A stretch of 64,000 bases of DNA from Thermoplasmatota archaeon (GTDB lineage: Archaea > Thermoplasmatota > E2 > DHVEG-1). Shown here piece by piece: positions 26,846 to 63,139 of the stretch. How positions within the stretch are numbered: position 1 is the stretch's first letter; every line of letters starts with the position of its first letter. Both the position numbers and the translations under genes were made by a program. The notes below the pieces were generated by a model. The model was not told where the DNA came from. It searched no databases and saw only the letters and a program-made list of their open reading frames with translations. The stretch lies in contig JBFEOQ010000004.1 in the NCBI GenBank assembly GCA_041550515.1, positions 1,190 through 65,189 of the forward strand. The letters run 5' to 3'.

Positions 26846-26850
26846 AAAAT

Positions 26851-31167: not shown

Positions 31168-31187
31168 AAAAAATTGGAGGTTAAAAA

Positions 31188-32593: not shown

Positions 32594-32604
32594 GGTGAAA
32601 AAAG

Positions 32605-34463: not shown

Positions 34464-34472
34464 GTGATACCT

Positions 34473-42030: not shown

Positions 42031-42031
42031 C

Positions 42032-44263: not shown

Positions 44264-44638
44264 TTAAATAATGGATTGTTTTTTTATTGTTTTTGTTGCA
44301 ACAATATCAACATCACTATTTAAAACATTTTTAATAATAATCTGACCTGATGCTACAGGAGCATTAATTGTAATTTTTTTAATTTGTCTAAGAATCGGAA
44401 ATAATTTATCCTTTGGTACTGGTCTAGTACTTTTTACACTAACTAGAGGCCATTCTCCACCTTTTACTAATACCGATGTTGTTAACATTCTCCTCGGATC
44501 AAGAGCTTCACTTTTTGCATATTCAATCCCTTTTTTACATATATTTTCCTCTGTTACTATAATTTGCTTTCCATCTATTTTTACGAATATCTTGCAACCA
44601 ATTGGACATATTATACAAGTGATTTTATTTTCATCCAT
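44264..44638 (-). CDS. DUF1667-family small Cys protein (third subunit of G3P-dehydrogenase-like modules)
   Basis: 124 aa with N-terminal CIICPIGC. It has an 8-nt overlap with the upstream oxidoreductase gene. Confidence 0.7.
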   Translation of the reverse strand: MDENKITCIICPIGCKIFVKIDGKQIIVTEENICKKGIEYAKSEALDPRRMLTTSVLVKGGEWPLVSVKSTRPVPKDKLFPILRQIKKITINAPVASGQIIIKNVLNSDVDIVATKTIKKQSII

Positions 44639-45890: not shown

Positions 45891-47349
45891 CTTTAACCTC
45901 TCTAGTTCGACCATTAAATAGATTAGAATTAGGTGATCGAAGTTTTATATCATTGATATTCATACCAAACTTCTTTTCCATAATTTTTATAATATGCTGG
46001 GCACAAAATCCCCCTTGACATCTACCCATACCTGCTCGACAACGATATTTAATAGATGAAATTGTTTTTGCACCAAGCGGATTTGAAAGAGCTTGAATTA
46101 CTTCCATCTCTGTAACATTTTCACATCTGCAAATTATTCGTCCCCATCTATCGTCTTTTTTAATTAATATTGCCTGTTTTTGTTCAGATATTTCAGAGAA
46201 ATGTTTTCTTTTTTTTGTTTTCATTATATATGTTTTTTTATATTCTAGATTAATATGTTTGGATATCATTTGTACTGTCTTTTTTGCTATGGCAGGAGCC
46301 GCGGTTAGACCAGGTGATTCAATTCCTAATAGATTTATTAAACCCGGTGTTTTTTTACTTTCTTCGATTCTATAATCTGCCCATCCTCCTTCTTCTTTAG
46401 ATGCGAGTTTACAACGAATTCCAGCATATGCATTTATAACTGCGTTATTCGGTAAATTTGGAATAATCTTTTTTGCTTCCTTGAATAAAGTCTTCATGGT
46501 TTTTCTTGTGGTTTTTTTATCATTAATATCATCTATGAATTCAGCACTTGGACCTACTAGAATATTTCCTTTAATAGTAGGGGTGAGATGAATTCCTAAA
46601 AATCCACTATTCTTTTCAGGAATGGGGTATATCATTGATTTTATCAAAGAACGATAATTTTTATCTAATACTAAATATTCTCCCCGACAGGGATATATAT
46701 TAAAATCAGGTTCTTCGAGCATTGCTACAATTTCTCTACAGTTTAACCCTGCTGCATTCACTAATAATTTAGTCTGATATTCACCTTTGTTAGTTTTTAT
46801 TAAAAAATTATGTTTTTGTTTCTTTAACCCAGAAACTTTAGTTTCAAGTAAAAATTTTACATTATTCTCTGCAGCATTCTCGGCAAGGGCAATAGTTAAC
46901 TCATATGGCTCTATTATACCAGCAGATGGAACCCACAAAGCTGCATGACATTTAACATTTGGTTCTTTTGATTTTATAGATGATTTATCTATTATTTCAA
47001 GATATGGAACTTTATTTTTCTCACCTATTTTTTTAATATATTTGAGTTCTTTAACTTCTTCATCGTTTTTAGCAATAACATATTTTCCAATCCAATTCAC
47101 TTGGACACCTAGCTGATTAGCTAATAATTTAAACATTTGATTTCCTTCAACACAAAAATGAGCTTTTAGTGAGGAGGGAGTAGAATTTAATCCACTATGT
47201 ATTACACCACTATTTGCTTTACTAGTTCCAGATGCAACGTCGCTTCCTTTCTCAAATACAACGACATCAATATTATATTTTGAAATCTCCCAAGCAATTG
47301 CAGAACCGATAACTCCTCCACCAACAATAGCAACTTGGAAGTTTTTCAT
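45883..47349 (-). CDS. FAD-dependent oxidoreductase of the GlpA / glycerol-3-phosphate dehydrogenase type with a BFD-like [2Fe-2S] domain
   Basis: 488 aa with VAIVGGGVIGSAIA and C-terminal ICRCENVTEMEV...RCRAGMGRCQGGFC. Confidence 0.75.
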   Translation of the reverse strand: MKNFQVAIVGGGVIGSAIAWEISKYNIDVVVFEKGSDVASGTSKANSGVIHSGLNSTPSSLKAHFCVEGNQMFKLLANQLGVQVNWIGKYVIAKNDEEVKELKYIKKIGEKNKVPYLEIIDKSSIKSKEPNVKCHAALWVPSAGIIEPYELTIALAENAAENNVKFLLETKVSGLKKQKHNFLIKTNKGEYQTKLLVNAAGLNCREIVAMLEEPDFNIYPCRGEYLVLDKNYRSLIKSMIYPIPEKNSGFLGIHLTPTIKGNILVGPSAEFIDDINDKKTTRKTMKTLFKEAKKIIPNLPNNAVINAYAGIRCKLASKEEGGWADYRIEESKKTPGLINLLGIESPGLTAAPAIAKKTVQMISKHINLEYKKTYIMKTKKRKHFSEISEQKQAILIKKDDRWGRIICRCENVTEMEVIQALSNPLGAKTISSIKYRCRAGMGRCQGGFCAQHIIKIMEKKFGMNINDIKLRSPNSNLFNGRTREVKDE

Positions 47350-47439
47350 CTGATTCGTTGAATATCAAGACTTATATAAATATATTAGTTGTTTACTTAT
47401 TTACTTTATATCATAAAAAAATTGAGCTGAGGAAAATAA

Positions 47440-48696
47440 ATGAAGGTAAATATTCCTTATGGAAGCAAATATATCAATGTTACAATACCTAAACCTTTTC
47501 ATATGTTAGTTCCTAACAAAGTAATGATAAAGAACCAAGAAAAACTAATAGATAAGGCTTTAGAAAAGCCTTTAGGTTTTAACTCTTATGATGATTTTGC
47601 TGAAGATGCTGATAGATTACTTGTTATTATTAATGATGCGACAAGACCTACTCCAACATCTAAAATTTTAAAATATCTTTTACCAGTTCTCTCATCTCAT
47701 CCTGACGTAAAGTTTCTTGTTGCGACTGGTGTTCATCGTGCGCCCACAGAAGAAGAATATAGATATATTTTTGGAAACACATATGAAATTTTTAGAAGAA
47801 AAGTTTATGCTCATGATGCAAGAAAAGATAATGATATGATCTACTTAGGTAAATCAAAGAATGGAACTGAAATGTATATAAATAAGTTAGTTCCAGAATA
47901 TAAAAATATTCTTGTTATCGGTAGTGTTGAACCGCATTATTTTGCAGGTTATACTGGAGGAAGAAAATCTTTCCTACCTGGAGTTGCCTCATATAAAACT
48001 ATTGAAATGAATCATAAACTTGCATTAAGTGATAAAGCATGTTCTCTTGCCCTTGAAGGAAATCCTGTGCATGAAGATATGGCTGACGCAATGCAGGTGC
48101 TTAAAGATCTTAAAGTTTTTTCTATACAAACAGTACTTACAGGTGATCATAAATTATATGCAGTTACCGCTGGTGATTTACATCAATCATTCGATGCGGC
48201 AATAGAATTTTCTAAACAAGTTTTTTGTGTACCTTTAAGAGGAAAAGGTAACTTAGTTATAACTGCCGCCCCTTATCCTATGGATATTGACTTATATCAA
48301 TCGCAAAAAGCTCTTGACAATGGTAAATTAGCTCTTGAGGATGGAGGAGTTATAATTCTTGTATCTAAATGTCGTGATGGTATAGGTGAAGATGCATTTC
48401 TTGAACTTTTAGGAAAAGCTAATTCTCCTAAAAAAATAATGGAAATACTTGGGGATGAATACAAGCTAGGATACCATAAAGCAGCAAAAATGGCTCAAAT
48501 TGGAATAAGAGCAGATATGTGGGCTGTTACTGATCTTGATGATAAAATTATTAAAAAGTCACAATTGAAACCTTATTCAACTATTCAAGTTGCAATAGAT
48601 GACGCAGTTAAACTTATTAAGAAAAAAGGTAAAAAACCAAAAACTATTGTTATGCCATATGGAAGTCTAACAGTTCCCCTAATTGGAGAAAAATAA
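47440..48696 (+). CDS. larA: nickel-dependent lactate racemase (LarA family)
   Basis: 418 aa with INDATRPTP, ATGVHRAPT and EPHYFAGYTGGRKS. Confidence 0.75.
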   Translation: MKVNIPYGSKYINVTIPKPFHMLVPNKVMIKNQEKLIDKALEKPLGFNSYDDFAEDADRLLVIINDATRPTPTSKILKYLLPVLSSHPDVKFLVATGVHRAPTEEEYRYIFGNTYEIFRRKVYAHDARKDNDMIYLGKSKNGTEMYINKLVPEYKNILVIGSVEPHYFAGYTGGRKSFLPGVASYKTIEMNHKLALSDKACSLALEGNPVHEDMADAMQVLKDLKVFSIQTVLTGDHKLYAVTAGDLHQSFDAAIEFSKQVFCVPLRGKGNLVITAAPYPMDIDLYQSQKALDNGKLALEDGGVIILVSKCRDGIGEDAFLELLGKANSPKKIMEILGDEYKLGYHKAAKMAQIGIRADMWAVTDLDDKIIKKSQLKPYSTIQVAIDDAVKLIKKKGKKPKTIVMPYGSLTVPLIGEK

Positions 48697-50521: not shown

Positions 50522-51574
50522 ATGGAAAAATATGATGTAGTCATCATTGGTGCAGGCCCAGCTGGGACATCGGCTGCTAAAATTCTTGAATCTAAAAGAC
50601 ATAACTACCTCATTTTAGATAAAATGTTGTTTCCCAGAAACAAACCATGTGCGGGTGTACTATCTCCAAAAGTTAATTCTATACTTAAAATTCCAAGAAA
50701 TATACGTGAACGTCCTCTTTATGGTTACCGTGTTTTTTCTCCATCTGGTAATATTGTAGAATCACCTTTCCCTGAACCTGGTTCTATAGTCAAAAGAGAT
50801 ATTTTTGATATGTTTCTTGTTGAATCCCTAATAAAAAAACCTACGCATGTAGATGTTACGAAAATATATAAAGATGATTATGGTATGGTAATTGTTGGGA
50901 ATAATTGGAAATGTAAAGCTAAAAGTATAATTGGAGCCGATGGAGCTAATTCAATTGTAAAAAAGTATTGTAAAATCTCATCAAAGAAAATTGCAATAAC
51001 CGCCCAATATACCATTTCTCTTCCATTTAATATTATAAATAAATTTATTGGTAATTGGTTTGAAGTGTATTATACTCTTAGATATGGATATGGATGGATT
51101 AGCCCTAATAAACAAAGTTTAAAAATCGGTGTTGGTATCCTCTCAAATTACCTAAAAATGAATATATGGGATGTATTAAATAATTTCATGAACCATCCAA
51201 TAGTAAAAGGAAAATCTAAGGATGGAAAAATTATTGGAAAAGAAACTCATATTATTCCTATGTCCGGACCGTTGGATAGACTTGTAGGTAATAAATGCAT
51301 ATTAGTTGGGGATGCAGGGGGTTTTGTATATCCTGGAACAGGAGAGGGTATATTTTATTCTATTAAAACAGGTCAAATAGCGGCAAGAGTAATTGATCAA
51401 GCAATAATAGATGACGATTATCATAATATTTCTATTGAAAAAAATTATTTAAAAGAATTAGATAAAAATGGAATTTTATGTCTTCGTAATATTGATTTCG
51501 TGGAAAAAATTCTGTCAAGCAGTGAAAAAATTGAAAAATATGTTAAGCGGTTAAGATATTTAAACAGAAACTAA
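50522..51574 (+). CDS. geranylgeranyl-reductase-family FAD flavoprotein
   Basis: 350 aa with YDVVIIGAGPAGTSAA and LVGDAGGFVYPGTGEGI. Its 3' end overlaps the convergent lplA-DUF116 gene by 4 nt. Confidence 0.75.
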   Translation: MEKYDVVIIGAGPAGTSAAKILESKRHNYLILDKMLFPRNKPCAGVLSPKVNSILKIPRNIRERPLYGYRVFSPSGNIVESPFPEPGSIVKRDIFDMFLVESLIKKPTHVDVTKIYKDDYGMVIVGNNWKCKAKSIIGADGANSIVKKYCKISSKKIAITAQYTISLPFNIINKFIGNWFEVYYTLRYGYGWISPNKQSLKIGVGILSNYLKMNIWDVLNNFMNHPIVKGKSKDGKIIGKETHIIPMSGPLDRLVGNKCILVGDAGGFVYPGTGEGIFYSIKTGQIAARVIDQAIIDDDYHNISIEKNYLKELDKNGILCLRNIDFVEKILSSSEKIEKYVKRLRYLNRN

Positions 51575-53133
51575 TTTGTTATTTTTAAATAATCAACTAC
51601 TTTTTTGATTAAATCTACGCGTAGATTGGTAAGATTTTCAAAGTTACCGTCATATGCATCTTTTTCCTCCCCAAGATCATAACATGTTTGATTATCAATA
51701 TCGATTAGAATACCTGGTAATCCAGCATTTTGGAAATCGTCTATATGTTTTGTATAGAATGCTTCACAGCAACTTCCAATAAATGATTTAATGCCCTTTT
51801 GTTTCAAATCATTTAAAGTTCGAATAAGATCTTTAAAGTTTAAAATGGTAATAGGAGTTAAGTTATTTTCTATGGCATATTTATAGATATCACCTACTGT
51901 ACATTTACCACAAAGAATACATCCCTTTTCTTGTCGGTATTTACATTCAGGTAATTTTGAACAATAGGGAATTAAAATTACTGATGATTCTCTAATATTA
52001 TCAATTGATTCAATAACTGTGAATATATTATTTACATTTTCAAGAGAAATTCCAAGTTTTAGATATTCAATTTTTTCCAATGATTTATATATTGCTTTTA
52101 TAAAATCAATAGGCTTAATACCAGGAATATCAACTTGTCTCTCATTAAAGAATTGTATAATTTTTTCTTTAATTTTAATTTTATCGATTGTACTATCTTT
52201 TAATAGTGCTTCAAGATCAAAAATTGTACGTTTTGGATGTATAAAAAAATCTCCTGTTATAAGAGCTGCCTGGATACGTTTATTTGGTATATCAACAATG
52301 AGAGATATGCGAATTAGGCCACCTGGAGTTTTATAAACTGATCTTAAAACCTGCCTTTGTTCAATTTTTTGTCGAACTCCATAAATCCATTCATTTGACT
52401 GATAATATTTAATTTTTTCATTAAATAATTTTATTTCTTTTCCAGTTAATTTACGTTCTATAGGATCAATATTTAAAACTTCGATAAATCCTTCTATTAA
52501 TGCCTTTTTAATGATTTTTAATCTTGGTAAATATCCTAGTTCCCATTTTAAGCATGTGACACGTTCCTTGACAGATTCTATTTCTTTATCTTTTAATTTT
52601 TCAATTGGAATTTTAAGTGATCGTATCATAGTGTTGACATCAAAATCGGTAAGAAGGGTTCCTTGAAAGAGAAATGCTTTTCCTTCAAACGCTCCTCCAG
52701 TTCCTGAAATCTTACGACCGTTAACCTCAATATCGTTTTTTGGACGGAATTCAGCTTTTATCCCTAAACGCTTTAATCCCCCTATTGAGCATTCACAAAT
52801 CTTTTTGTATATTTTCTCCATGTCTTTTGGAATTATTGGATTATTTCTATTTACAATTAGTTCCCATCCTAATTGAGGTTCATCTATGTAAATTGCTCCA
52901 CCACCAGTAATCCGTCGATTAATCTCTATGTTATGATTTTTACAGTAATCAACTCTAATTTCTTGTTCAACATTTTGATGAAAACCAACAAGGACATTGT
53001 TTGGTGAAAACTGTAGAAATCTAATTGTATTTGGAATATAATTCTTATTTCTACACAAAAGAAGAACTTCATCAAGAGTTATATTCTCTGCAGCATTTCT
53101 AATTCCAGTATCAAGAATAGACCAATCTTTCAT
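51571..53133 (-). CDS. lipoate-protein ligase (LplA/LipB-fold) fused to a C-terminal Cys-rich DUF116-like domain
   Basis: 520 aa. The ligase half has NRRITGGGAIYID and GRKISGTGGAFEG. The C-terminal roughly 150 aa carry CSKLPECKYRQEKGCILCGKC and GSCCEAF. Confidence 0.7.
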   Translation of the reverse strand: MKDWSILDTGIRNAAENITLDEVLLLCRNKNYIPNTIRFLQFSPNNVLVGFHQNVEQEIRVDYCKNHNIEINRRITGGGAIYIDEPQLGWELIVNRNNPIIPKDMEKIYKKICECSIGGLKRLGIKAEFRPKNDIEVNGRKISGTGGAFEGKAFLFQGTLLTDFDVNTMIRSLKIPIEKLKDKEIESVKERVTCLKWELGYLPRLKIIKKALIEGFIEVLNIDPIERKLTGKEIKLFNEKIKYYQSNEWIYGVRQKIEQRQVLRSVYKTPGGLIRISLIVDIPNKRIQAALITGDFFIHPKRTIFDLEALLKDSTIDKIKIKEKIIQFFNERQVDIPGIKPIDFIKAIYKSLEKIEYLKLGISLENVNNIFTVIESIDNIRESSVILIPYCSKLPECKYRQEKGCILCGKCTVGDIYKYAIENNLTPITILNFKDLIRTLNDLKQKGIKSFIGSCCEAFYTKHIDDFQNAGLPGILIDIDNQTCYDLGEEKDAYDGNFENLTNLRVDLIKKVVDYLKITN

Positions 53134-53228
53134 TTTTTCACTTTTAAATTCAATTAATTCTATATTCTAAATCTAAATATTTATAATCTTTTTAAAGAAA
53201 TGTATATTTATTTTGATATTTCTTCAAA

Positions 53229-54260
53229 TCACGAGTAGTTAAACAACTGCTTTTGAATTATTTCAATATCTGATTGTTCTGGTTTAAAAGCATAATTTCT
53301 AATTGGATGAGATGGACGTTCATTACCATAAGGCCGATTACATGCAACAAATCCATCACTCCCAGAACATCCTGATGTCATAAATGCATATCCAGATTTG
53401 ACTACAGGTTCAATATCTACTCCAAACTCTATTATCTGGTTTTTATTGTTAAAAACCATTTTTTCAAATCTACTTATTCCTTCATTTATGAGATAACGTG
53501 CAAGTTGAATTCTACGATAATTTCCATAAGTTGGCTGTGGGTATTTCTCCATTTTACTACCTAGTTCAGGATAAAATGAGAATAACTGACCCTTAGCACC
53601 CATATCTTCAGCTCTTTGTATTATTTCAGCCATTTCCTTCTCTGATTCATTCAAACCAACTATTAGATGTATACCAACCTTTCCCTTTCCAAAATATTCA
53701 ACTGACCACTTAACAATCTGCCAATAATGATCCCATTTATGAGGACCATTAACACCTTTACCGCGCAATTTATCAAATATTTCAGGAGTTACGGCATCTA
53801 ATGCTATTCCAATCATATCTGCTCCTGCCTGCTTTATTCTCAATAAATCATTTTTTTTTATTAAAGTTGGGGAAATCAGTCCACTAATTAAAAGATTTGT
53901 TTCATCACGAAATTTTTGTATTATATTACACATATCATCAAAAGCATTTGGATGTGTTATCATAGAAATGCAAACTCTTTTAAGATTTTTACCATATTTA
54001 TTTGTTCTTTTAATCACATCATCGGTTTTCAATATTGGCCAATCAACCCTGATAAATGTCTTTTTATTGATATCCCGCGATTTTGAGAGACCACAATATG
54101 CGCATCTTGCAATACATCCATCTTCATAATTTAAAAGAAGATTCAATGCTTTTAGATGTTCGCCTCTATTAAATTTCCCAGGAAAAAACTTAAGTGTCAT
54201 TGCTGCAGCTGTACTAATCTTAACATATTCAGGGCTTTCTTTTTTATTCATCTTCTTCAA
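53229..54260 (-). CDS. radical SAM protein, biotin-synthase/lipoyl-synthase-related (candidate LipS-type)
   Basis: 343 aa with CIARCAYCGL (CxxxCxxC). It is embedded between the lipoate ligase and gcvH-like genes. Confidence 0.7.
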   Translation of the reverse strand: MKKMNKKESPEYVKISTAAAMTLKFFPGKFNRGEHLKALNLLLNYEDGCIARCAYCGLSKSRDINKKTFIRVDWPILKTDDVIKRTNKYGKNLKRVCISMITHPNAFDDMCNIIQKFRDETNLLISGLISPTLIKKNDLLRIKQAGADMIGIALDAVTPEIFDKLRGKGVNGPHKWDHYWQIVKWSVEYFGKGKVGIHLIVGLNESEKEMAEIIQRAEDMGAKGQLFSFYPELGSKMEKYPQPTYGNYRRIQLARYLINEGISRFEKMVFNNKNQIIEFGVDIEPVVKSGYAFMTSGCSGSDGFVACNRPYGNERPSHPIRNYAFKPEQSDIEIIQKQLFNYS

Positions 54261-54684
54261 CTCTTTGAATTTCTGCAGATATCCAATTTCTTATGTCTTC
54301 TTCTTTTTCTATAATATATCTAGTATCAACCTTCATATTTTTAGGTTTTATAATAACTATCCACGATTCATATGGATTATCATTTATTAAACTTGGATTA
54401 TTGATTACTTCTTTATTTATAGATACAATCTCCCCGTCTATTGGAGAGTAAAATCTGCTAACAAACTTTGCTGATTCGAAGCTCCCTATTGGTTCTCCAT
54501 TTTTTACTTTATTTTTGGTAATTTTAAGATATGTTAAAAAACCAACTATTTCTGCGGCAAATGCATCCATACCAATCTTATAATAGTTATTATCTTCTTT
54601 TAGCCATATGTGTGCTCCATCTTTTATATAATATTTTCTATCTAATGGAAATTTCATGCCATTTATTTCAAACAATAAATACAC
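54244..54684 (-). CDS. GcvH-like lipoyl carrier protein
   Basis: Has the H-protein layout: HIW, IGMDAFAAEIVG, lipoyl-lysine context GSFESAKFVSRFYSPIDGEIV, then NPYESW. The start is uncertain (GTG 54684 in the track, TTG 54675, or ATG 54657). Confidence 0.8.
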   Translation of the reverse strand: MYLLFEINGMKFPLDRKYYIKDGAHIWLKEDNNYYKIGMDAFAAEIVGFLTYLKITKNKVKNGEPIGSFESAKFVSRFYSPIDGEIVSINKEVINNPSLINDNPYESWIVIIKPKNMKVDTRYIIEKEEDIRNWISAEIQRVEEDE

Positions 54685-54688
54685 CTCC

Positions 54689-55693
54689 TTAATTTTCTTT
54701 TTTAAATATACTCATAATTTTATTATTAACCATATTTCTATTATATTCCAAACCTTCCAATTCATTCATTAAATTCTGTTGATTTTCAGAAAACAATGGA
54801 GAGGAATTTAAAAATAATACATTTTTGATTTTATTTTCCTTTATCTCACATATTATTTTCTGAACCCAGTTGGATAAATTTAATTCTTTATAAAAAAGTA
54901 GAACTCCTTCTCTTATTTTAATTTCACGACCAGTTGGTTTTTCCCCCTTTTGATATAACCAAGATTTTGAAGTGTAGTATTTATTAAGCTCAATCATTTT
55001 TGTGTTTATTTTTTTATCTAATCTTTCTTTTTTCATTGGTCCTAATATTTTAATAAAATTTGAAGAAAGAATTTTATAAATCTTTTTTTTTGGAGGGACA
55101 TTATCACCTAATTCTTGTTTAAGTGTAGTTAAATTATCTTTCATTAGTTCTAGGTATCTTTTTCTTAAAATTTCTGTTAATTGTAATGCATTTGCCATTG
55201 TATTATAGTCAAAGTCAAATAAAATGCTTCCTCCTAAAATTTTACATTCACCAACCTCGCCTCCTCCATTTCCTGAAATTTTTTTTTCATTTACAATTAA
55301 ATCACACAATGGTTGATATTCAGCTGAAATTCCGATATCATGATATGTGTGAATAACTGGTTGGAGGAATTTTTTAAAAAAATTTTGTGGAATTCGTGGA
55401 ACTTCAGGATTATTTCGATTTATGATTAAATGATAAAAAATCTGATTTTTATCTAACAAAACTGTTCCACCCCCTATTTCCCTTCTAAATATACCTATAT
55501 TGTTTTCTTTACAATATTTTAAATCTATCTCATCATTTGGATTCTGATGTAAACCTATGCATATATATTTTCCGGTAGATGAATGTAAAACCAGACTCTC
55601 GATATTCATGTAAGCTAGAGCATGATAAATCAATTGTGAATCTATCCATTGAAGTTTGTCTAATATGAATAGTTTCATTAAGTTAGCCTCCAC
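54689..55693 (-). CDS. lplA: lipoate-protein ligase (LplA family)
   Basis: 334 aa with FRREIGGGTVLLD and KKISGNGGGEVG (ligase lysine context). Confidence 0.75.
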   Translation of the reverse strand: MEANLMKLFILDKLQWIDSQLIYHALAYMNIESLVLHSSTGKYICIGLHQNPNDEIDLKYCKENNIGIFRREIGGGTVLLDKNQIFYHLIINRNNPEVPRIPQNFFKKFLQPVIHTYHDIGISAEYQPLCDLIVNEKKISGNGGGEVGECKILGGSILFDFDYNTMANALQLTEILRKRYLELMKDNLTTLKQELGDNVPPKKKIYKILSSNFIKILGPMKKERLDKKINTKMIELNKYYTSKSWLYQKGEKPTGREIKIREGVLLFYKELNLSNWVQKIICEIKENKIKNVLFLNSSPLFSENQQNLMNELEGLEYNRNMVNNKIMSIFKKEN

Positions 55694-56015
55694 TTTTAGA
55701 AAGATATTTAATTAGGTAATATTACTAAAATAATAATATAATTTTCGAAATTCGTTAATTTGTAATTTTGTTATAATTAAAAAATCCTTACTATATTTTA
55801 TAAAATTGTTAATAAAAATTATATTTTTATTCTATTCATTACTAAAACAGTCTATAGCCTATAATCTATCAAATATTCCTACTTAATAAATTTCTTCTTT
55901 AGCTTTCGAAAGTTATATATTATTAGGCAAATTAGGCAGTAATAACCTCCTCTACAATCGCTACCACATTTATAGGGTTTGTACGACATTCTTCTCACTA
56001 TAAGTTATCTATTAA

Positions 56016-56900
56016 TTATATAAAAGAATTAACAATTGTATGAAAAATTATTCCAATGTTAATCATAAATATTGAAAACATTACAAGACCTAAAGATCGA
56101 CCAAGATTTACAGGTTTAAAGTTCTTTCTTATAGATATTTGACTATATAATAAAGATATCCCTCCAATTAATGAAAATATTAGAAATATGATACTATTAT
56201 CAAGAAGGAAAAACATCCAAATAATAGTGATAAATGTAGCTATTGCAAATAATAACCCAATTTTAACAAATTTTTCTCGACCAAAAAATACTGCAAAAGT
56301 TTGTGGATGAATTTTTATATCTCCTTCATAGTGTAAAATGTTTTCAGGGACATCCAATGTTAACTCCCAAAAAAATAATAAAAGAAATAATGCAAGTGGT
56401 ATGAAATTAATTGATGCAAAAGCAATCCATACAGCAACTGGTATTAAACCAGCACCTAAACCAAGTAATAAATTATTTTTATATTTAGAGGAGTAAATGG
56501 CTATAAGAACTATGCATATTATTTGTATCAAAGAACTGACAATGTTATAAAAACTAAACCACCATAAGAAGATTCCAAGTAAAATAAATATAAGTGAAAT
56601 AATTAATGCTATATTTTTTTTTATTCTTCCCGAAGGAAGTGGACGTTTTGGATTAACAATTTCATCTTCTTTTAAACCTACTATATCATTAAATACATAA
56701 ATGCCTACTATTGATGCCCAATAAGCAAAAGCCCATATTAATGTTTTAATTTGGAAAAATTCATCTAATGAACCATTTACCCAAAATATAGCTAACATAC
56801 CGGGAGTTAATCCTATAAAAAAGCATGCAAGCCACCAACCTGGTCGTAATACTTCGATATATGCTATGTTTTTGGTTTTGTTTTTTATCATTTTCATCAT
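56016..56900 (-). CDS. UbiA-family prenyltransferase (polytopic membrane protein)
   Basis: 294 aa and multi-TM. The first motif is NDIVGLKEDEI (the second Asp of NDxxDxxxD is replaced by Gly). The second acidic motif is LDVPENILHYEGD. Confidence 0.75.
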   Translation of the reverse strand: MMKMIKNKTKNIAYIEVLRPGWWLACFFIGLTPGMLAIFWVNGSLDEFFQIKTLIWAFAYWASIVGIYVFNDIVGLKEDEIVNPKRPLPSGRIKKNIALIISLIFILLGIFLWWFSFYNIVSSLIQIICIVLIAIYSSKYKNNLLLGLGAGLIPVAVWIAFASINFIPLALFLLLFFWELTLDVPENILHYEGDIKIHPQTFAVFFGREKFVKIGLLFAIATFITIIWMFFLLDNSIIFLIFSLIGGISLLYSQISIRKNFKPVNLGRSLGLVMFSIFMINIGIIFHTIVNSFI

Positions 56901-56994
56901 TTTATTACTTATTTAATTTCATAATATTGAGAATATTTTAAGACATAACAAAAAATATTAATAAATTTACGATTTTTTAAAATACAGAAGATGT

Positions 56995-57969
56995 CTATGG
57001 AATAGATAAAAAACCTGCATTGTATAAGAGTACTAAGCTTTGTCCAAATGTAACTAAAAGTGAAAAAGATAAGATTGCATAATATCCTCCAGTAAAATCT
57101 TGTTTTCTTAAAAAGTACCAATAAGAAAAAATTTCAGCAATAATTATTGGCCAGACGAAAAATAAGAAACTAGTGGTAATGATATAATTTAGTATACCCA
57201 TTAATACAATTATTGAGTTTGATATAATTACACAAGCCAATCCTAAATAAAAAACTTTTTTTTTCTCAAGAAATGTTGCTATTGTTCTTAATCCTTCTTT
57301 GATATCAGGTTCGTAGTCTATAATCGTTGTTGGAATGTATATTGCACCAACACCAAAAAAACCTAACAATCCCCATAAAATAGGAAATTCAGTTATTGGT
57401 TTTACTAAAATCCAACCTGCTAATGAACAAATCACACCACTGCCAAAGGCATTTGTAATAAAATCTAAACCAGGTCTCTCTTTAAATCTCATTGGTGGTG
57501 AAGAATATGAAATAGAAAGAATTATACAAATAGTAATAAGTATAACGAACCATAAAGAAATAAATAAAGCAGATAAGAATGCTAGGAAAAAGAGAAATAT
57601 TGATACAAATAAAACAGATTTTGGCTTTATTATACCTCCTATCAAAGGAAGATATTTTTTCCTCCTGCTATCAAAATCAGTATATCTGTCAAAATAATCA
57701 TTAAAAAGAATTGTTGCACCGCCTAAAAGAGGACCTATTGATATTATTCCAATTATAAACAAAAAAAACTCTTGATAAATATTATATACAGGGGAAGGAT
57801 CAGTGAGTAAAAAAACCTTTGCTATATATGTAGGATAAATCTTGTTAGATGCAAGTGACCAACCCATGTAAAATGGTAGAATTGAAACCCCCCAAAACAG
57901 AGGAGCCATTTGTTTTAAAAAATGTCGAATTATTAGAAATGGTGCAAGTATTGAATCATTATTATTCAT
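56995..57969 (-). CDS. UbiA-family prenyltransferase (polytopic membrane protein)
   Basis: 324 aa and multi-TM, with a canonical NDYFDRYTD first motif and DYEPD second motif. Confidence 0.75.
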   Translation of the reverse strand: MNNNDSILAPFLIIRHFLKQMAPLFWGVSILPFYMGWSLASNKIYPTYIAKVFLLTDPSPVYNIYQEFFLFIIGIISIGPLLGGATILFNDYFDRYTDFDSRRKKYLPLIGGIIKPKSVLFVSIFLFFLAFLSALFISLWFVILITICIILSISYSSPPMRFKERPGLDFITNAFGSGVICSLAGWILVKPITEFPILWGLLGFFGVGAIYIPTTIIDYEPDIKEGLRTIATFLEKKKVFYLGLACVIISNSIIVLMGILNYIITTSFLFFVWPIIIAEIFSYWYFLRKQDFTGGYYAILSFSLLVTFGQSLVLLYNAGFLSIP

Positions 57970-57992
57970 AATTCATCAAACTCTATCATTAT

Positions 57993-59294
57993 TTATAGAG
58001 ACTTGGCAGCAATATCAATTACATCCATTACTTTCATTTTGAAATCCTGCTCCATTTCTTTCATTTGTTCCTTTTTTATCTTAATAGCATTTCCTATCGA
58101 ACCTTTACAATTTGGACACGCAGATACAATAGTTTTTGCCCCTAAATCATAAGCTTCATTGATTTTCCTAATTGTAATATCTGTTGTTAAATCATAATTA
58201 ACAGCTTTTAAACCTCCACCACCACCGCAGCAGATACTATCCATACGATTATTAGGGAATTCAAGAATTTCATTAATACCAGGGATATTTTTTAATATAT
58301 AACGAGGAGCATCAAAAATACCCCTACCTTCATATTCAGATATTCTTCCTAATTCACAAGGATCATGATAAATAATTGGAAGATTTTTCTCATTAAATTC
58401 TTTTGTAAATTTTAATTTTCCATCTTCAATTGCTTTTGCAATCAATTCAGTTATATGTAAAAGTTCAAATTTGAAATTAGCGAATTTTTTATATTTTTTA
58501 ATAGCCCTATAACATCCAGGACACCCCGTTATTACCTTTGTTGCACCTCTTTTTTTAATTTGTTTTAAGTTATATTCTGCAATATCTTTAAAATTACTCC
58601 ATTGCCCTGACATAGTATTAATAGCACCACAACACATCTCATCTGTTCCTAATGTAGTAAAATCTATTTTGGCACTTGTAAGAATTTTTAAAGCATTCAA
58701 TAATGTTTGATACTCATGATAAGATGTCACACAACCAACAAAATATACAATATCTGCTTTTTTAGGGAGTTTATACTCATCACGATACCATTCATCTCTT
58801 TTTGATAAAGGTTCCATAAATGGATTCTTAAATTCTTTATTGGCAATGTTATTATACATATCAATTGTATTTTTTGGGGGTATAATTTTATTTTCAACCA
58901 TCCATTCTCTGATTTCTTCCCAATATTTATGAAAATCAATGTCAACATGACAAATTGTTTCACATCGGCTACAAAGTGTACATGTATATATTTTTGTCAT
59001 CGCTTCTTCAAGAGATATTTGTCCTCTACTGGTAAGGAAATCCGTTATCTTTTTTCCTAGTATCTTATCCAAAAAACTATCCTTAGCAATAAGATGCTTC
59101 AAAAGATATACTTTCCCTCTTGGAGTTAGAGATTCCCATCCTGTCTCTCTATATACAGGACAAACAGATTTACAATAACCACATTGCAAACAAGCGTATA
59201 CATCATCTAAATGAGGAGGCTTGTTTCGTACAAGGTTTTTCTTATCTATGCTTTTTGATTTTTTCTTTTCATCTTTTTTATTTCTTTTTCTCAT
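57993..59294 (-). CDS. Fe-S oxidoreductase, GlcF / HdrD-like (2x[4Fe-4S] plus two CCG domains), paralog 2
   Basis: 433 aa with CLQCGYCKSVCP and CTLCSRCETICH, and CCG motifs EMCCGAIN and SICCGGGGGLK. Confidence 0.85.
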   Translation of the reverse strand: MRKRNKKDEKKKSKSIDKKNLVRNKPPHLDDVYACLQCGYCKSVCPVYRETGWESLTPRGKVYLLKHLIAKDSFLDKILGKKITDFLTSRGQISLEEAMTKIYTCTLCSRCETICHVDIDFHKYWEEIREWMVENKIIPPKNTIDMYNNIANKEFKNPFMEPLSKRDEWYRDEYKLPKKADIVYFVGCVTSYHEYQTLLNALKILTSAKIDFTTLGTDEMCCGAINTMSGQWSNFKDIAEYNLKQIKKRGATKVITGCPGCYRAIKKYKKFANFKFELLHITELIAKAIEDGKLKFTKEFNEKNLPIIYHDPCELGRISEYEGRGIFDAPRYILKNIPGINEILEFPNNRMDSICCGGGGGLKAVNYDLTTDITIRKINEAYDLGAKTIVSACPNCKGSIGNAIKIKKEQMKEMEQDFKMKVMDVIDIAAKSL

Positions 59295-60846
59295 ATTTAT
59301 TTATCCTAATCTTATCCGCCGGCATTATTTGTTTTAATATAGCTAAAAAATTTAAGCCAAAATTCATAACAAAACCTGGAATAGGGATTCCAAAACGTGT
59401 TGAACTCTCTATTAGTTTTCCGGGATTCATTATATAATGAGGATCTATAGTGGATTTGATATCATCCATGACTAGAACGCCTTTACCATGTATTTTTTTT
59501 AGATTTCCACTAAAAAGAAGACCAAAACCACCAGGTCTTCCACCAACTTTGAATACTTCATCTGTTAATTTTTTTATTAATGCCATAGATGCCATATTTT
59601 TTATAAGTTTTTGTTCATTTGAAAGAGCATATGTCATAAATAACGCTGTATTTGGATCTGATATATAACCCACCACTGCTCCTTTCATCTTTAACTTTTT
59701 TAATATCTCTTTTGATCTTTTAGTCATGATAGTAAATTTTGATAAAGGACAGAATCCTTCTCCTACTATTAATCCTGGTCCAAGACGACGTGCTCTTGAT
59801 TCGAAAAATCGCTCATCCCATTCATGTTTTGCAAATTCTTTAGTTTCTTTTTTGCCACCATTTTTTATCATTATATCTTCTGCTTTTTGTTCCTCAAGAT
59901 CAATAATATTGCTATCTCCGCTAAAGATAATATTGACTACAGCTCCAATCTTTTGAGATTTTCTATCAAGCTTTTGTAATATATCATAGTGTGCGCCATC
60001 AGTAAATGCTATGTGATAAGGATTTATGTTTGATCGTGTTAGTTTATATATTGCTTTACTAGCGTCTTCTAGATTTGAAAAAACATATGATGTAGGTCGT
60101 ATTTCTAAAGGTGCAGGTAAAACTTTTAAAGTTACTTTTGTAATAATTCCCAATGTTCCTTCAGAGCCTACAAATAAATCTATTAGATTATAACCCGATG
60201 AATTATTTACTATTTTTTTATTACCTGTGTTAATAATACTTCCATCTGGTAAAACTACTTCTATTGACCGAATCAGTTTATCAATTCCGCCATATTTATA
60301 TGATCCAATTCCAACACCTCCAGTATTTATCCAACCACCAATAGTTGCTCCGGGGGCACTACTTGGATAAGCTCCAATAAGAAGGTTTTTACTTAATAGG
60401 GTGTCATAAAGATGTTTCCAATTCACTCCGGGTTCAACTGTTACATATAAGTTATCTTCATTTATCTCCAAAATCTCTTGCATACTACCCATATCTAAAA
60501 TAATGCCACCAAAAGCAGGAACTACTCCCCCAAATGCCCATGAAGAACCTCCTCTTGGTATAATCGGAACATTATTTTTAACAGCATATTTCATTATTTT
60601 TGACACATCTTCGACATTACGTGGCTTAACTACTATATCTGGAATTGTTTTAAATACAAGAGACATTTCTTTAGGTAATGGAGCTAAATCATGGCTGTAT
60701 AAGAGCCGATCAATGTTACTTTCACTGATATTACCCTCTCCGACTATATCTGCTAACTTTTTATAAATCTCTGAATTTGTAAATTGTTTTTTTGGAAAAT
60801 CGGAGTCATTATTCGTTTCATTTATTTTTTCACTCAATTCTATCAC
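59278..60846 (-). CDS. FAD-linked oxidase, GlcD family, paralog 2
   Basis: 522 aa with PRGGSSWAFGGVV and the C-terminal DPHYIMNPGK. It has a 17-nt overlap with the downstream HdrD-like gene. Confidence 0.85.
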   Translation of the reverse strand: MIELSEKINETNNDSDFPKKQFTNSEIYKKLADIVGEGNISESNIDRLLYSHDLAPLPKEMSLVFKTIPDIVVKPRNVEDVSKIMKYAVKNNVPIIPRGGSSWAFGGVVPAFGGIILDMGSMQEILEINEDNLYVTVEPGVNWKHLYDTLLSKNLLIGAYPSSAPGATIGGWINTGGVGIGSYKYGGIDKLIRSIEVVLPDGSIINTGNKKIVNNSSGYNLIDLFVGSEGTLGIITKVTLKVLPAPLEIRPTSYVFSNLEDASKAIYKLTRSNINPYHIAFTDGAHYDILQKLDRKSQKIGAVVNIIFSGDSNIIDLEEQKAEDIMIKNGGKKETKEFAKHEWDERFFESRARRLGPGLIVGEGFCPLSKFTIMTKRSKEILKKLKMKGAVVGYISDPNTALFMTYALSNEQKLIKNMASMALIKKLTDEVFKVGGRPGGFGLLFSGNLKKIHGKGVLVMDDIKSTIDPHYIMNPGKLIESSTRFGIPIPGFVMNFGLNFLAILKQIMPADKIRINKYEKKK

Positions 60847-60996
60847 CTTGCGAAATTAGAAAAACTCCTTTCAATATTAACTTTTTCATATTTAATATAT
60901 AATATTTAAAATTACAGGTAATTTATGTCTAATTTTGTAATAATTAAAATATTTAAAAAAATTGGACATTTTGAATTTTTTCCCAAATTAATCGCA

Positions 60997-61431
60997 TTAT
61001 TTATTGATTAAAGCTTTTTTCTCTTCAATTTCTTTCTTCATCCATTTCTCAAAATCTGGCCCAATTTTCATCAATTTATTTAACTCTGCATCTAAATTGT
61101 CAGAAGAAATTTTTAATATCCAACCTTCACCATATGGATCAGTATTACAAAGCGTAGGGTCATCTTCAACATCTTCATTAATCTCAGAAATCTCTCCACT
61201 TACTGGAGCATATAGTTTACCAGTCCATTTTCCACTACTCATTGTTCCAAATGGTTTATCCTGACTTACTTCATCGTCTTCTTCAAGTGTTACAATACGT
61301 TTAATTGTTCCAGCCAATTTTTGCGTAAAATCAGTTATACCAATTTTTACCTGGTCATCTTCAACTCGAGCCCACATATGCTCTTTGTGATAGTATAATC
61401 CTTCGGGAAATTCATATTCGTCTATTTTCAT
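60997..61431 (-). CDS. GcvH-like lipoyl carrier protein, divergent lipoylation motif
   Basis: 144 aa with HMW, IGITDFTQKLAG, GTMSSGKWTGKLYAPVSGEI and DPYGEGW. The lysine is aligned with the canonical ESVK lysine. Confidence 0.75.
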   Translation of the reverse strand: MKIDEYEFPEGLYYHKEHMWARVEDDQVKIGITDFTQKLAGTIKRIVTLEEDDEVSQDKPFGTMSSGKWTGKLYAPVSGEISEINEDVEDDPTLCNTDPYGEGWILKISSDNLDAELNKLMKIGPDFEKWMKKEIEEKKALINK

Positions 61432-61669: not shown

Positions 61670-63139
61670 ATGGATCTTTTATACTCTACAATTGTATTAT
61701 TGATTTTATCAATAATTTGGGCGGTAATAATTTTTCTAGTATTTAGGAGAATGATTGGAAAACAAACAAAAAAAGATAAAATAATGCTTTTTGGTGGTTT
61801 TCTTATTTTTGTGGGTTTAGCCGCTATTGTAATAGCAGGAACGATTACATTTGAGTATATTGAAAGTCCTAAATTTTGTGGAACATCTTGTCATGTTATG
61901 GAGCCTTTTTATAATTCTTTTAAGTTTCCAGGCAATAACCAAATGATGGATATTCATTTAAATGAAAAAATAAGTTGTTCCAACTGTCATAATAACCCTG
62001 GTATTGTTGGAACTATTGAAGGTTTTTTATCTGCTATTCCAGAGGCATATATATATTTTACAAATACTTATGATATTAATGATTTACACGGAGATATTTC
62101 ACGTGAAGCTTGTCTAAAATGTCATGAGGAAGGTATTGCTAAATTACCTGGAGAGATTAATGCATTAGATGATATTGTTGTTAATCCTCATGATGATGAA
62201 ACTAAGTGTGATGCATGTCACGATCCTCATGAAAATGGATTTGGTCTAACTCAATATGCTTGTCCTATTTGTCATGGAATTTATTTAGATAATTTTGAAA
62301 TTCGATTATTAAATCATTCTGAAAGAGTTAAATTAAATTGTGCGGATTGTCATAATAGAAAACATCCAGATAATGCAAAAATCTTTTTCTCTGAATATCC
62401 CTCACTTATAAATACTGATTTTTGCTCAGATTGTCACGTTGAAGAAATTGAAAGTCTTAATAGAGGAGTGCATAAATCAATTAGTTGTATTATCTGTCAT
62501 AATGAACATAAATCTTTGAGTATAAATTTTGATAAATGTAATGAACCTTGTCATAATCCACCTTCGGATCATAATAAGTTTACTTCAAATTGTATTATAT
62601 GTCATGATACTACAAGAATACATTCTATATCTACTTCTAGTGTTGAACACGATGTAACTTTCTCTGATATTGTATGTTCAACATGCCACAAATTGGAAAA
62701 TTCTGCATATGAATATAGTTTTACTCCCTCTTCTTTAGAAATTTATGGAGATAATGGATGTATTGACTGTCATCCGAATCATAATACTACATTTTATCCT
62801 CATATTATAATATCTCCATTCAATAATTGTAGCAGTTGCCATCCAACCTATAATACATCAGTTACAATACATGATCGTACAGCAACAAAATATCTTGGAT
62901 TTTTAAATATTACAAGCGATTTCTGTTCAGATTGCCATGAGAGTGAAGTTAAAAAATTTAATTTAGGGATACATTACGAATATGAATGTATTGACTGTCA
63001 TGAAGAACACTTAATCGTGAAGATAAATTTTGATAGCTGTAATAATCCTATATGTCATATTACTCCTTCCTATCATAACAATTATCTGAGAAATTGTTTA
63101 GATCCAATTTGTCATACTGATATTTCAAGTATTCATTAG
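61670..63139 (+). CDS. membrane-anchored multihaem cytochrome c
   Basis: 489 aa with two N-terminal hydrophobic helices. I count 13 canonical CxxCH motifs plus CGTSCH and CNEPCH (CX3CH) and CNNPICH and CLDPICH (CX4CH). Confidence 0.85.
   Translation: MDLLYSTIVLLILSIIWAVIIFLVFRRMIGKQTKKDKIMLFGGFLIFVGLAAIVIAGTITFEYIESPKFCGTSCHVMEPFYNSFKFPGNNQMMDIHLNEKISCSNCHNNPGIVGTIEGFLSAIPEAYIYFTNTYDINDLHGDISREACLKCHEEGIAKLPGEINALDDIVVNPHDDETKCDACHDPHENGFGLTQYACPICHGIYLDNFEIRLLNHSERVKLNCADCHNRKHPDNAKIFFSEYPSLINTDFCSDCHVEEIESLNRGVHKSISCIICHNEHKSLSINFDKCNEPCHNPPSDHNKFTSNCIICHDTTRIHSISTSSVEHDVTFSDIVCSTCHKLENSAYEYSFTPSSLEIYGDNGCIDCHPNHNTTFYPHIIISPFNNCSSCHPTYNTSVTIHDRTATKYLGFLNITSDFCSDCHESEVKKFNLGIHYEYECIDCHEEHLIVKINFDSCNNPICHITPSYHNNYLRNCLDPICHTDISSIH

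Follow-up and report, generated by a model that had tools for sequence, protein, structure and literature searches.

Gene content of the cluster

A gene cluster at positions 50522-61431 of a 64-kb stretch of DNA (the window) from a Thermoplasmatota archaeon (contig JBFEOQ010000004.1) combines genes for two GcvH-like lipoyl carriers and for the assembly of lipoate with genes for Hdr-like iron-sulfur (Fe-S) proteins that bear CCG domains. All open reading frames (ORFs) and domains that an original prediction, made from the sequence of the window, had called in this region exist where it had placed them, as judged by an ORF check, Pfam and NCBIfam. The cluster is encoded on the minus strand throughout, from 61431 down to 51571, where it meets a convergent plus-strand gene. 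In the direction of reading the genes are:

60997-61431, minus strand: carrier B, a protein of the GcvH fold and GKW subfamily (GCV_H, Pfam 118.7 bits; motif SSGKWTGK, Lys68)
59278-60846, minus strand: GlcD-like flavin adenine dinucleotide (FAD) flavoprotein of the VAO/PCMH family, 2-hydroxyacid dehydrogenase-like (FAD_binding_4 and FAD-oxidase_C)
57993-59294, minus strand: HdrD/TfrB-like Fe-S protein (two ferredoxin motifs, Fer4, and two CCG domains)
56995-57969, minus strand: UbiA-family membrane prenyltransferase 2 (UbiA, 96.4 bits; about eight hydrophobic segments)
56016-56900, minus strand: UbiA-family membrane prenyltransferase 1 (UbiA, 93.1 bits)
54689-55693, minus strand: carrier-adjacent LplA-type lipoate/octanoate:protein ligase (LplA-B_cat; nearly the full length of TIGR00545)
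54244-54684, minus strand: carrier A, of the GcvH fold (GCV_H, Pfam 92.1 bits; motif FESAKFVSR, no cysteine)
53229-54260, minus strand: radical S-adenosylmethionine (SAM) sulfur insertase of the LipS2 clade, half of a two-protein lipoyl synthase (NF053743)
51571-53133, minus strand: two-domain Lpl(AB) ligase with a C-terminal DUF116 domain (LplA-B_cat; LplB-like C-terminal domain, Lip_prot_lig_C/LplB; DUF116)
50522-51574, plus strand: flavoprotein of the geranylgeranyl reductase (GGR) family, a LipT candidate or prenyl reductase (TIGR02032, 185.8 bits)

Carrier B is the first gene of the GlcD/HdrD unit and is separated by 150 base pairs (bp) from the GlcD-like gene, the 3′ end of which overlaps the HdrD-like gene. 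UbiA 2 follows after 23 bp and UbiA 1 after a further 94 bp, and another 322 bp lead to the LplA-type ligase gene, which lies 4 bp from carrier A. Carrier A overlaps the LipS2 gene, the Lpl(AB)-DUF116 gene comes 95 bp further, and the end of the latter is overlapped in convergent orientation by the GGR-family gene. Near-identical contigs occur in the metagenome-assembled genomes (MAGs) GCA_975957175.1, GCA_975970665.1, GCA_975851925.1 and GCA_041556475.1. In GCA_975851925.1 (L003; homologous loci are referred to here by L numbers) the GlcD, HdrD, UbiA and ligase genes are fragmented into numerous short ORFs, and those for the two carriers and LipS2 remain whole, which reflects either an assembly error or decay of the partner genes.

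The window holds no classical lipoate-dependent enzyme, as had been predicted. A Pfam scan that took in every window ORF of at least 100 amino acids (aa) detected no GDC-P, GCV_T, 2-oxoacid_dh or biotin_lipoyl domain and no E3 with a dimerisation domain, the signatures of gcvP, gcvT, lpd and the E2 of 2-oxoacid dehydrogenases. Both sets of 2-oxoacid oxidoreductase genes (6399-9351 and 20611-23223) are likewise of the lipoate-independent POR/TPP ferredoxin type that had been claimed for them. The reported lack of DsrE, TusA and rhodanese holds for the whole 64 kb by Pfam, by six-frame phmmer search and among the small ORFs in gaps: a DsrE query finds no match in the six-frame translation, and the intergenic gaps contain no ORF of TusA size.

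The lipoyl carriers

Neither carrier is a classical H-protein, a suspicion of the original prediction that the profiles bear out. The ES[VA]K[AT]xxD motif is missing from each, and the two score below the cutoff of the gcvH equivalog TIGR00527 (115.85 bits), carrier B with 106.6 and carrier A with 75.1; carrier A is also below the cutoff of the GcvH subfamily PRK01202 (81.7 against 117). The lipoyl-lysine of solved H-proteins aligns with a lysine in both carriers, and this lysine is invariant in their orthologs. The surrounding motif is FESAKFVSR in carrier A and SSGKWTGK in carrier B, against ESVKAVSD at 35 canonical loci. In both carriers the lysine is followed by an aromatic residue, and position +4 is basic. 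The carrier A motif is kept in 24 orthologs from Thermoplasmatota, Hydrothermarchaeota and Pyrohabitans, where the gene order is always ligase, carrier A, LipS2. The SGKW of carrier B is invariant in 13 aligned carriers from Thermoplasmatota, Syntrophomonas, Clostridia, Moorella and Chloroflexota, and a full HMMER search recovers it in 38 of the 150 best cluster representatives.

The lipoate-binding protein LbpA of sulfur-oxidising sHdr systems is recognised by two strictly conserved cysteines near its N- and C-termini, some archaeal LbpAs excepted (PMC6067878). Both cysteines are missing from both carriers, carrier A having no cysteine and carrier B a single non-conserved one. The PDB contains no LbpA structure, and both carriers match only H-proteins there. 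No mention of the SGKW motif was found in the LbpA literature.

Association of GKW-type carriers with CCG proteins

The link between carrier type and genomic neighbourhood was examined in a metagenome scan anchored on generic GcvH motifs (an alignment of 6 sequences), so that canonical GcvH loci served as built-in controls. The survey yielded 32 carriers of the GKW type, 35 canonical ones and 14 others. A CCG protein is encoded within 3 kb at 20 of the 32 GKW loci as against 1 of the 35 canonical GcvH loci (Fisher p = 8e-8), and many of the GKW loci that have no CCG neighbour are on very short contigs. An LplA-like ligase is present within the same distance at 11/32 GKW loci and at none of the 35 canonical ones. 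Unsupervised clustering of the neighbours, checked with Pfam, places GcvP (11/35), GcvT (11/35) and Lpd-like proteins (6/35) beside canonical carriers and at no GKW locus, and it finds CCG proteins (20), ligase (8), HdrA (6) and GlcD (6) only around GKW carriers. GKW-type carriers are thus statistically linked to CCG proteins.

The best-scoring representative of the HMMER search, P0361 (1391 aa), carries three GCV_H domains, FAD_binding_4/FAD-oxidase_C, Fer4 and two CCG domains in one chain, and so joins the counterparts of carrier B and of the GlcD-like and HdrD-like proteins of the window. This natural fusion supports a physical association of the three proteins, not a lipoyl chemistry. A different fusion, P0438, combines response-regulator receiver, GcvH-like and HdrC-like parts.

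The GlcD-like and HdrD-like proteins

The two redox proteins that follow carrier B belong to known families yet reach no equivalog cutoff. The GlcD-like protein scores 218.7 bits with TIGR00387 (glcD), far under the cutoff of 567.9. For the HdrD-like protein the best NCBIfam family is TfrB, subunit B of thiol:fumarate reductase (157.6 against a cutoff of 385); DsrK gives 76 against 400 and GlcF 71.9 against 333. TfrB is the thiol-oxidising subunit of its enzyme. The HdrD-like protein has two CxxCxxCxxxC ferredoxin motifs, and its two CCG units are complete and spaced as in HdrB (C-x32-CC-x35-CxxC and C-x41-CC-x36-CxxC); its partner is the GlcD-like protein and not a cognate HdrE, TfrA or DsrM.

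The lipoate assembly genes

The lipoylation half of the cluster is a lipoate assembly module of the LipS1/LipS2 type, that is, a known pathway in an unusual configuration. When the radical SAM protein (53229-54260) is compared with models of LipS1/LipS2, BioB and LipA, as the original prediction had proposed, it classifies as LipS2 (NF053743, 233.4 bits; next NCBIfam family 52 bits) and a BioB or LipA signal is absent. Its score lies under the NF053743 cutoff of 270. However, LipS2 orthologs that stand beside a cutoff-passing LipS1 score lower still (206-227, in Moorella L081, Sulfobacillus L177 and Pyrohabitans L012), so the whole clade is sub-cutoff and the assignment stands. Invariant residues are the CxxxCxxC motif and C97, C298 and C307. 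It is the only LipS-type radical SAM protein in the window, the other radical SAM protein (12835-13536) being a small activase-like one.

LipS1 is encoded in the relatives, where it passes its cutoff (233-245 against 230). It adjoins the cluster in L018, lies inside a carrier B-GlcD-HdrD-UbiA-LipS1 cluster in L096/L097, and in L094 shares a 307-kb contig (the L010 contig) with the cluster, at a distance of 30 kb; in L178 it is next to a giant HdrA and in L179 next to UbiA. A pathway with LipS2 alone, giving a mono-thiol 8-mercaptooctanoyl arm that would resemble coenzyme B, was considered and is unlikely. This idea was dropped because LipS1 occurs in the lineage, cutoff-passing in close relatives and in some of them within the cluster.

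The two LplA-fold ligases of the original prediction are genuine two-domain enzymes of the LplA type according to NCBIfam and, for the DUF116 fusion, to superposition of an AlphaFold2 model. They are paralogs, the ligase at 54689-55693 being 38% identical to the catalytic part of the DUF116 fusion. This ligase covers positions 34-309 of the 328-position TIGR00545 model, and its orthologs in archaea, bacteria and metagenome loci always lie directly beside a non-canonical carrier. In the AlphaFold2 model of the fusion (51571-53133; mean pLDDT 84.7) residues 1 to about 360 superpose on solved two-domain LplA structures.

The DUF116 domain of the fusion occupies approximately aa 356-520 (window 51571-52068), with the Pfam match at aa 363-486. 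Eight cysteines and one histidine are invariant (C391, C397, C405, C408, C411, C455, C456, C484 and H463), in the pattern C-x5-C-x7-C-x2-C-x2-C ... CC ... H ... C. Modelled alone, the domain adopts an alpha/beta fold (pLDDT 85, pTM 0.82), and this model has no significant fold match in the PDB. Homologs of the ligase-DUF116 protein number 3397; the best 120 of the 3397 are all fused, at least 51% identical, and span Thermoplasmatota, Heimdallarchaeota, Chloroflexota and Actinomycetota. About 55 bacterial loci share the standard order Lpl(AB)-DUF116, GGR-like, LipS2, LipS1. No link between DUF116 and lipoate was found in the literature, and the widespread Lpl(AB)-DUF116 fusion is flagged here as an uncharacterised component of lipoate synthesis by LipS1/LipS2.

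The GGR-like protein (50522-51574) exceeds the TIGR02032 cutoff of 158.8, and its gene keeps the same convergent position at 7 Thermoplasmatota loci. It is 29% identical to the Moorella protein encoded between Lpl(AB)-DUF116 and LipS2, which is also a member of TIGR02032. Neither the profile nor pairwise identity separates LipT from a true prenyl reductase, both being TIGR02032, and two UbiA genes are nearby.

Conservation in relatives and in other phyla

The core order LplA-carrier A-LipS2-Lpl(AB)/DUF116 recurs in 11 other species-level Thermoplasmatota genomes, so the arrangement is not due to chance. A CCG protein is encoded within 10 kb of this core operon in 8 of the 11, and no gcvT, gcvP or lpd lies within 10 kb of the cluster in the relatives. 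L014 and L017 have the whole carrier B-GlcD-HdrD-UbiA unit, an HdrD-like gene lies directly upstream of the core operon in L018, L021 and L080, and L015 retains a truncated, Fer4-only HdrD-like remnant (gene at L010 551-1144). In L017, L019 and L024 HdrC-HdrB(-C-B)-HdrA genes come directly after the ligase-DUF116 gene. UbiA 2 is kept at its position in L014, L015, L017, L080, L096 and L179, and UbiA 1 in L014 and L015.

Comparable clusters occur in unrelated bacteria. In Syntrophomonas (L075, L087) a GKW carrier, GlcD and HdrD are followed by ligase, a second GKW carrier, Lpl(AB), GGR, LipS2 and LipS1. The order is GlcD, HdrD, GKW carrier, Lpl(AB)/DUF116, GGR, LipS2, LipS1 in a Clostridia MAG (L086) and DsrE, GKW carrier, HdrC, HdrB, HdrA, MvhD, Lpl(AB)/DUF116, GGR, LipS2, LipS1 in Moorella (L081), and carrier, CCG and LipS genes are similarly linked in Chloroflexota (L039, L045). 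Conservation of the cluster together with Hdr-like genes, which the original prediction had put forward as a test, is thus found both in relatives and in unrelated phyla. None of the outcomes that the prediction had named as refuting it turned up where they could be looked for. The domain identities and the conservation of the arrangement are direct observations.

Some of these loci have features of their own. In Syntrophomonas sp. DTU018 (L087 3-3400) a canonical E2, a LipB/M-like protein and a LipA-like radical SAM protein are encoded directly upstream of the GKW-carrier-GlcD-HdrD genes, with a DUF6506 protein between the two side-by-side lipoylation systems, each of which apparently has its own targets. 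The DsrE-family gene of Moorella naiadis L081 is at 1510-1986, and DsrE is likewise upstream in L129, L152, L103 and L026; Moorella is an acetogen genus not known as a sulfur oxidiser, yet its cluster looks sHdr-like. In Thermoplasmata bin33 (CP070751.1; L017/L008 3620-8396 and 12848-14213) the two UbiA genes are accompanied by genes for a UbiB/ABC1 kinase and a DUF8155 protein, and two proteins with no Pfam match lie between Lpl(AB)-DUF116 and the HdrC-B-C-B-A set. The bin33 chromosome, at 5.16 Mb, is very large for Thermoplasmata.

A proposed lipoate-based redox shuttle

Taken together, these data somewhat favour the view, which we rate a little above an even chance, that the region encodes a self-contained redox shuttle of protein-bound lipoate, in which the lipoyl group acts as a dithiol/disulfide carrier in the manner of LbpA/sHdr systems and does so without sulfur transferases. 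The original prediction had named protein-bound lipoate as the dithiol/disulfide substrate of the CCG proteins; the association of the genes supports this strongly, a support that does not as yet extend to the chemistry.

In the proposed scheme the two LplA-type ligases would load octanoate or lipoate onto the two dedicated GcvH-fold carriers, and the LipS2-clade enzyme would add both sulfurs together with a LipS1 whose gene would lie in another part of the genome. The DUF116 domain and the GGR-like flavoprotein may be accessory to this step, possibly as the source of an Fe-S cluster or of sulfur and electrons. Carrier B would then dock with its lipoyl arm as dithiol/disulfide partner at the CCG site of the HdrD/TfrB-like protein, and two electrons would be exchanged between this site, the two [4Fe-4S] clusters and the FAD of the GlcD-like protein. 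With the CCG subunit wired to the GlcD FAD, the pair is proposed to couple a 2-hydroxyacid/2-oxoacid couple to the lipoyl/dihydrolipoyl carrier. The potentials are about -290 mV for lipoamide and about -190 mV for pyruvate/lactate, and on these textbook standard values the downhill direction runs from the dihydrolipoyl group to the 2-oxoacid.

Soluble complexes of the HdrABC-Mvh/Flx type, whose genes lie about 7 kb from the cluster in the window and immediately beside it in relatives, could recycle the carrier. Its role would parallel that of CoM-S-S-CoB with HdrD/TfrB in methanogens, of DsrC with DsrK in sulfate reducers, and of LbpA in sHdr sulfur oxidisers. Carrier A might be a second shuttle, or else the protein that holds lipoate during its construction in a lipoyl relay; GcvH serves as such a lipoyl-relay scaffold in Bacillus (PMC6067878).

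Weighing the alternatives

Several points tell against the proposed shuttle. LipS1 is not detected in the 64-kb window by the Pfam and NCBIfam scan, and carrier B scores just above the loose PRK01202 GcvH subfamily cutoff (122.2 against 117). The carrier A orthologs of Hydrothermarchaeota and Pyrohabitans have no CCG neighbour, and the second GlcD/CCG pair of the window (40603-43213) has no carrier gene; such carrier-less pairs are the ordinary D-lactate/glycolate dehydrogenase types, which need no carrier. All three GcvH-like domains of P0361 lack the lipoyl-lysine, so the GcvH fold can pair with GlcD/HdrD without lipoate. The two UbiA genes that separate the HdrD-like gene from those for lipoylation, joined by UbiB in L017, hint at a quinone link instead, and oxidation of a 2-hydroxyacid with lipoate as acceptor would be uphill on the same textbook potentials. 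Moreover, it is the sequence that suggests lipoylation of the carriers and the gene association that suggests a chemistry between CCG site and lipoyl group. Which substrate the GlcD-like protein uses, which way electrons flow and what the DUF116, GGR-like and UbiA proteins do are likewise what we infer.

Some of these points would suit a housekeeping function, in which a general LipS1/LipS2 pathway and its H-protein(s) serve glycine cleavage or a different lipoate enzyme from outside the window, and the neighbouring GlcD/HdrD, UbiA and Hdr genes form an unrelated lactate/quinone island. LipS1/S2 are widespread in archaea and only 8% of the archaea that contain them have sHdr (PMC10332631), the Thermococcus pathway serves an H-protein, and the carrier A orthologs without a CCG gene stand in LipS1-Lpl-GcvH-LipS2 operons; carrier B's place above the PRK01202 cutoff agrees with this, and a lactate racemase gene (LarA) and the second GlcD/CCG pair nearby fit plain lactate metabolism. 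What this explanation does not account for are the non-canonical carriers, which lack the canonical motif and fall below the equivalog cutoff, and the association of carrier B with CCG proteins: GKW carriers were never beside gcvP/T in the survey, as canonical ones are, they have CCG neighbours at 20/32 loci against 1/35, the linkage recurs in three bacterial phyla, and Syntrophomonas keeps its canonical E2, LipB/M-like and LipA-like proteins beside a separate set of GKW carrier and LipS genes. We therefore regard a housekeeping role as unlikely. A quinone-linked enzyme is also conceivable, namely a D-lactate/glycolate:quinone oxidoreductase formed by GlcD/HdrD, with carrier B structural or regulatory, only carrier A lipoylated, the UbiA, UbiB and GGR-like proteins making or modifying the quinone, and electrons passing to cytochrome b and a multihaem cytochrome c. 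The UbiA gene only 23 bp after the HdrD-like gene and its retention in several relatives (with UbiB in L017) point this way, as do the divergently adjacent multihaem cytochrome gene, the cytochrome b and Ccm genes just past the window, the NCBIfam matches to the quinone-dependent LdhH and GlpC, and the lysine-less domains of P0361. Set against them are the lysine within the invariant SGKW in 13/13 aligned GKW carriers and in 38 GKW cluster representatives, the dedicated LplA-type ligase adjacent at 11/32 loci, the bacterial GKW-GlcD-HdrD loci that have no UbiA genes, and the pairing of GKW carriers with soluble HdrCBA-MvhD, which has no quinone link; this alternative is decidedly unlikely.

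Sulfur oxidation or trafficking of the true sHdr-LbpA kind, with carriers that pass sulfane sulfur to Hdr-like complexes as in Hyphomicrobium and Thioalkalivibrio and with transferases encoded outside the window, has to be weighed too. The gene set resembles lipS1-slpl(AB)-lipT-lipS2 plus lbpA, the HdrC-B-C-B-A order of L017 recalls sHdrC1B1...C2B2, GKW carriers lie directly beside DsrE-family and Hdr genes in Moorella L081, L129, L152 and L103, and one is found in the LipS cluster of Sulfobacillus, a genus of sulfur oxidisers. These last two observations suggest that LbpA may be a branch of the same carrier family. Nevertheless, sulfur transferases, which one report (10.1101/2023.12.18.572138) describes as always accompanying sHdr-LbpA systems, are absent from the 64 kb, the two LbpA cysteines are missing from both carriers, and the immediate partner is a GlcD-like dehydrogenase, while the Mvh hydrogenase, ferredoxin-dependent 2-oxoacid oxidoreductases, fumarase and LarA point to an anaerobic fermentative or respiratory life. 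Sulfur oxidation of this kind is accordingly very improbable here.

Relation to known systems

The closest known system is LbpA/sHdr with its sLpl(AB)-LipS1/S2-LipT assembly pathway, for which the pairing of LbpA, sHdr and a dedicated ligase has been described (Cao et al. 2018, PMC6067878; Tanabe et al. 2023, PMC10332631). The original prediction had matched the gene set to this pathway, and the match stands for LipS2 and the ligases; LipS1 is absent from the window and found in relatives, and the carriers lack the LbpA cysteines. Both systems have GcvH-fold carriers that are not those of glycine cleavage and that conserve the lipoyl-lysine, a dedicated LplA-type ligase encoded beside the carrier, a LipS2 (LipS1) synthase and a GGR-family flavoprotein in the cluster; in both the carrier genes lie in or next to a CCG gene cluster, an arrangement kept in relatives, and lipoate presumably acts as a swinging-arm dithiol. 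The logic is thus shared, and the two differ in the cysteines of the carrier and in the sulfur transferases (DsrE, TusA and rhodanese), of which the window has none. They differ further in the partner, which here is GlcD-like plus HdrD/TfrB-like and not sHdrC1B1AHC2B2, in the two ligase paralogs (one fused to DUF116), the lack of LipS1 in the cluster and the two embedded UbiA genes, and in the host, an anaerobic Thermoplasmatota archaeon with Mvh/Hdr/Flx.

LipS1/S2, the ligase and possibly LipT are of archaeal origin and are documented to have spread widely beyond sulfur oxidisers (PMC10332631; PMC9585515). In Thermococcus kodakarensis an LplA-type ligase and two BioB-like radical SAM proteins make lipoate in protein-bound form, with octanoate as the starting material (PMC9585515; PMC10332631). 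As in archaeal operons of that type, ligase and LipS genes are together here; there, however, the target is the H-protein of glycine cleavage and the typical order is lipS2-lplA-lplB-lipS1, whereas the present operon has its own non-canonical carrier, a second ligase, DUF116 and a CCG linkage. A GcvH gene also occurs in the Ehe/HdrA2B2C2 cluster of Culexarchaeia, for which an interaction of lipoyl disulfide with HdrB has been suggested (Kohtz et al. 2022, PMC9723716). These are non-methanogenic archaea, without full biosynthesis of coenzymes M and B (CoM, CoB), in which a GcvH gene accompanies HdrB-type genes. In that case the suggestion is a single speculative sentence about one cluster, backed by neither lipoylation genes nor a comparative test, and the partner is a membrane [NiFe]-hydrogenase/HdrBC complex.

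Among CCG proteins, HdrD, TfrB and DsrK act on CoM-S-S-CoB or on the DsrC disulfide/trisulfide according to Wagner et al. 2017, as cited in PMC6067878, and DsrC is thus a precedent for a protein-borne CCG substrate. The HdrD-like protein shares with them two ferredoxin-type clusters and two CCG units, in which thiol/disulfide is handled at a noncubane [4Fe-4S] cluster, but it scores far under their equivalog cutoffs, and its flavoprotein partner is GlcD-like and not TfrA or a membrane cytochrome. The sequence of a GlcD-like FAD subunit followed by Fer4 and two CCG domains is that of GlcDEF glycolate oxidase and of D-lactate dehydrogenase (GlcF/GlpC-like subunit); unlike these, the present unit is headed by the gene of a GKW-type carrier and scores well under the glcD and GlcF cutoffs. 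In the literature neither the GKW carriers as a class nor their link to GlcD/HdrD was found to be systematically described.

Anaerobes that synthesise neither coenzyme M nor coenzyme B are rich in Hdr-like CCG proteins and HdrABC/Mvh/Flx complexes, and what the CCG site acts upon outside the sulfate reducers (DsrC) and sHdr oxidisers (LbpA) is a long-standing question, for which the GKW carriers are a recognisable candidate. The candidate subfamily motif is xSGKWxG[KR]; its members are automatically annotated as 'glycine cleavage H protein' yet occur with CCG proteins and their own ligases and never with gcvP/T. GcvH annotations in such genomes are therefore unsafe evidence for glycine cleavage or for the reductive glycine pathway. 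A role of protein-bound lipoate as CCG substrate is directly testable with a handful of recombinant proteins.

A wider generalisation is offered tentatively and is on balance doubtful: lipoylated carriers with an aromatic residue after the lysine (GKW and its relative ESAKF) might be a general protein-borne equivalent of the heterodisulfide in non-methanogenic anaerobes, serving many orphan HdrD-like, HdrABC-MvhD and Flx-type complexes. If so, the hosts would include Thermoplasmatota, Firmicutes and Chloroflexota, each carrier having its own ligase and LipS1/LipS2 synthase, and sHdr-LbpA sulfur oxidation would be one specialised offshoot of a wider family of lipoate-based electron shuttles.

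Other features of the window

Two further redox loci of the window are related to the cluster by their gene families:

23132-40051, plus strand: block of HdrA/HdrC/HdrB, MvhG/A/D and Flx-like genes (Pfam), candidate partner for carrier recycling
40603-43213, plus strand: second pair of GlcD-like and Fer4/CCG genes (Pfam), with complete CCG units and no carrier gene

The first of these confirms the nearby Mvh/Hdr/Flx block that had been reported; the block together with the second pair ends about 7.3 kb from the cluster. Among the proteins of the block are giant HdrA-like fusions, 1095 and 1244 aa long (23132-26419 and within 34464-40051, plus strand). A 650-aa HdrA-like ORF (34464-36416) overlaps the 1244-aa ORF (36317-40051) by about 100 bp, for which a frameshift, a recoded stop (selenocysteine) or a mis-called start could be responsible. 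The GC content of the window is about 30%, and its archaeal nature shows in a Hjc resolvase gene at 2047-2637 and a TrmB-type regulator. Three ORFs on the minus strand have no Pfam match (10072-12708, 878 aa; 43406-44101, 231 aa; 246-650, 134 aa).

Redox and organic-acid genes surround the cluster (44264-48696 and 17935-20338). They comprise a trio of a GlpA-like DAO/BFD protein, a Pyr_redox_2 protein and DUF1667, together with the lactate racemase LarA, a class I fumarase, and a Fer4 protein with an SdhA/TfrA-like flavoprotein; a carrier-using reaction like that of thiol:fumarate reductase is conceivable in this organism. A 489-aa multihaem cytochrome c (61670-63139, plus strand) is encoded divergently next to carrier B, as it is in every close relative, and is followed (L001 1-9763) by genes for a cytochrome b (Ni_hydr_CYTB) and a CBS protein and by those of a complete Ccm system for cytochrome c maturation. 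Such a set of multihaem cytochrome, cytochrome b and Ccm is unusual respiratory equipment for a Thermoplasmatota archaeon.

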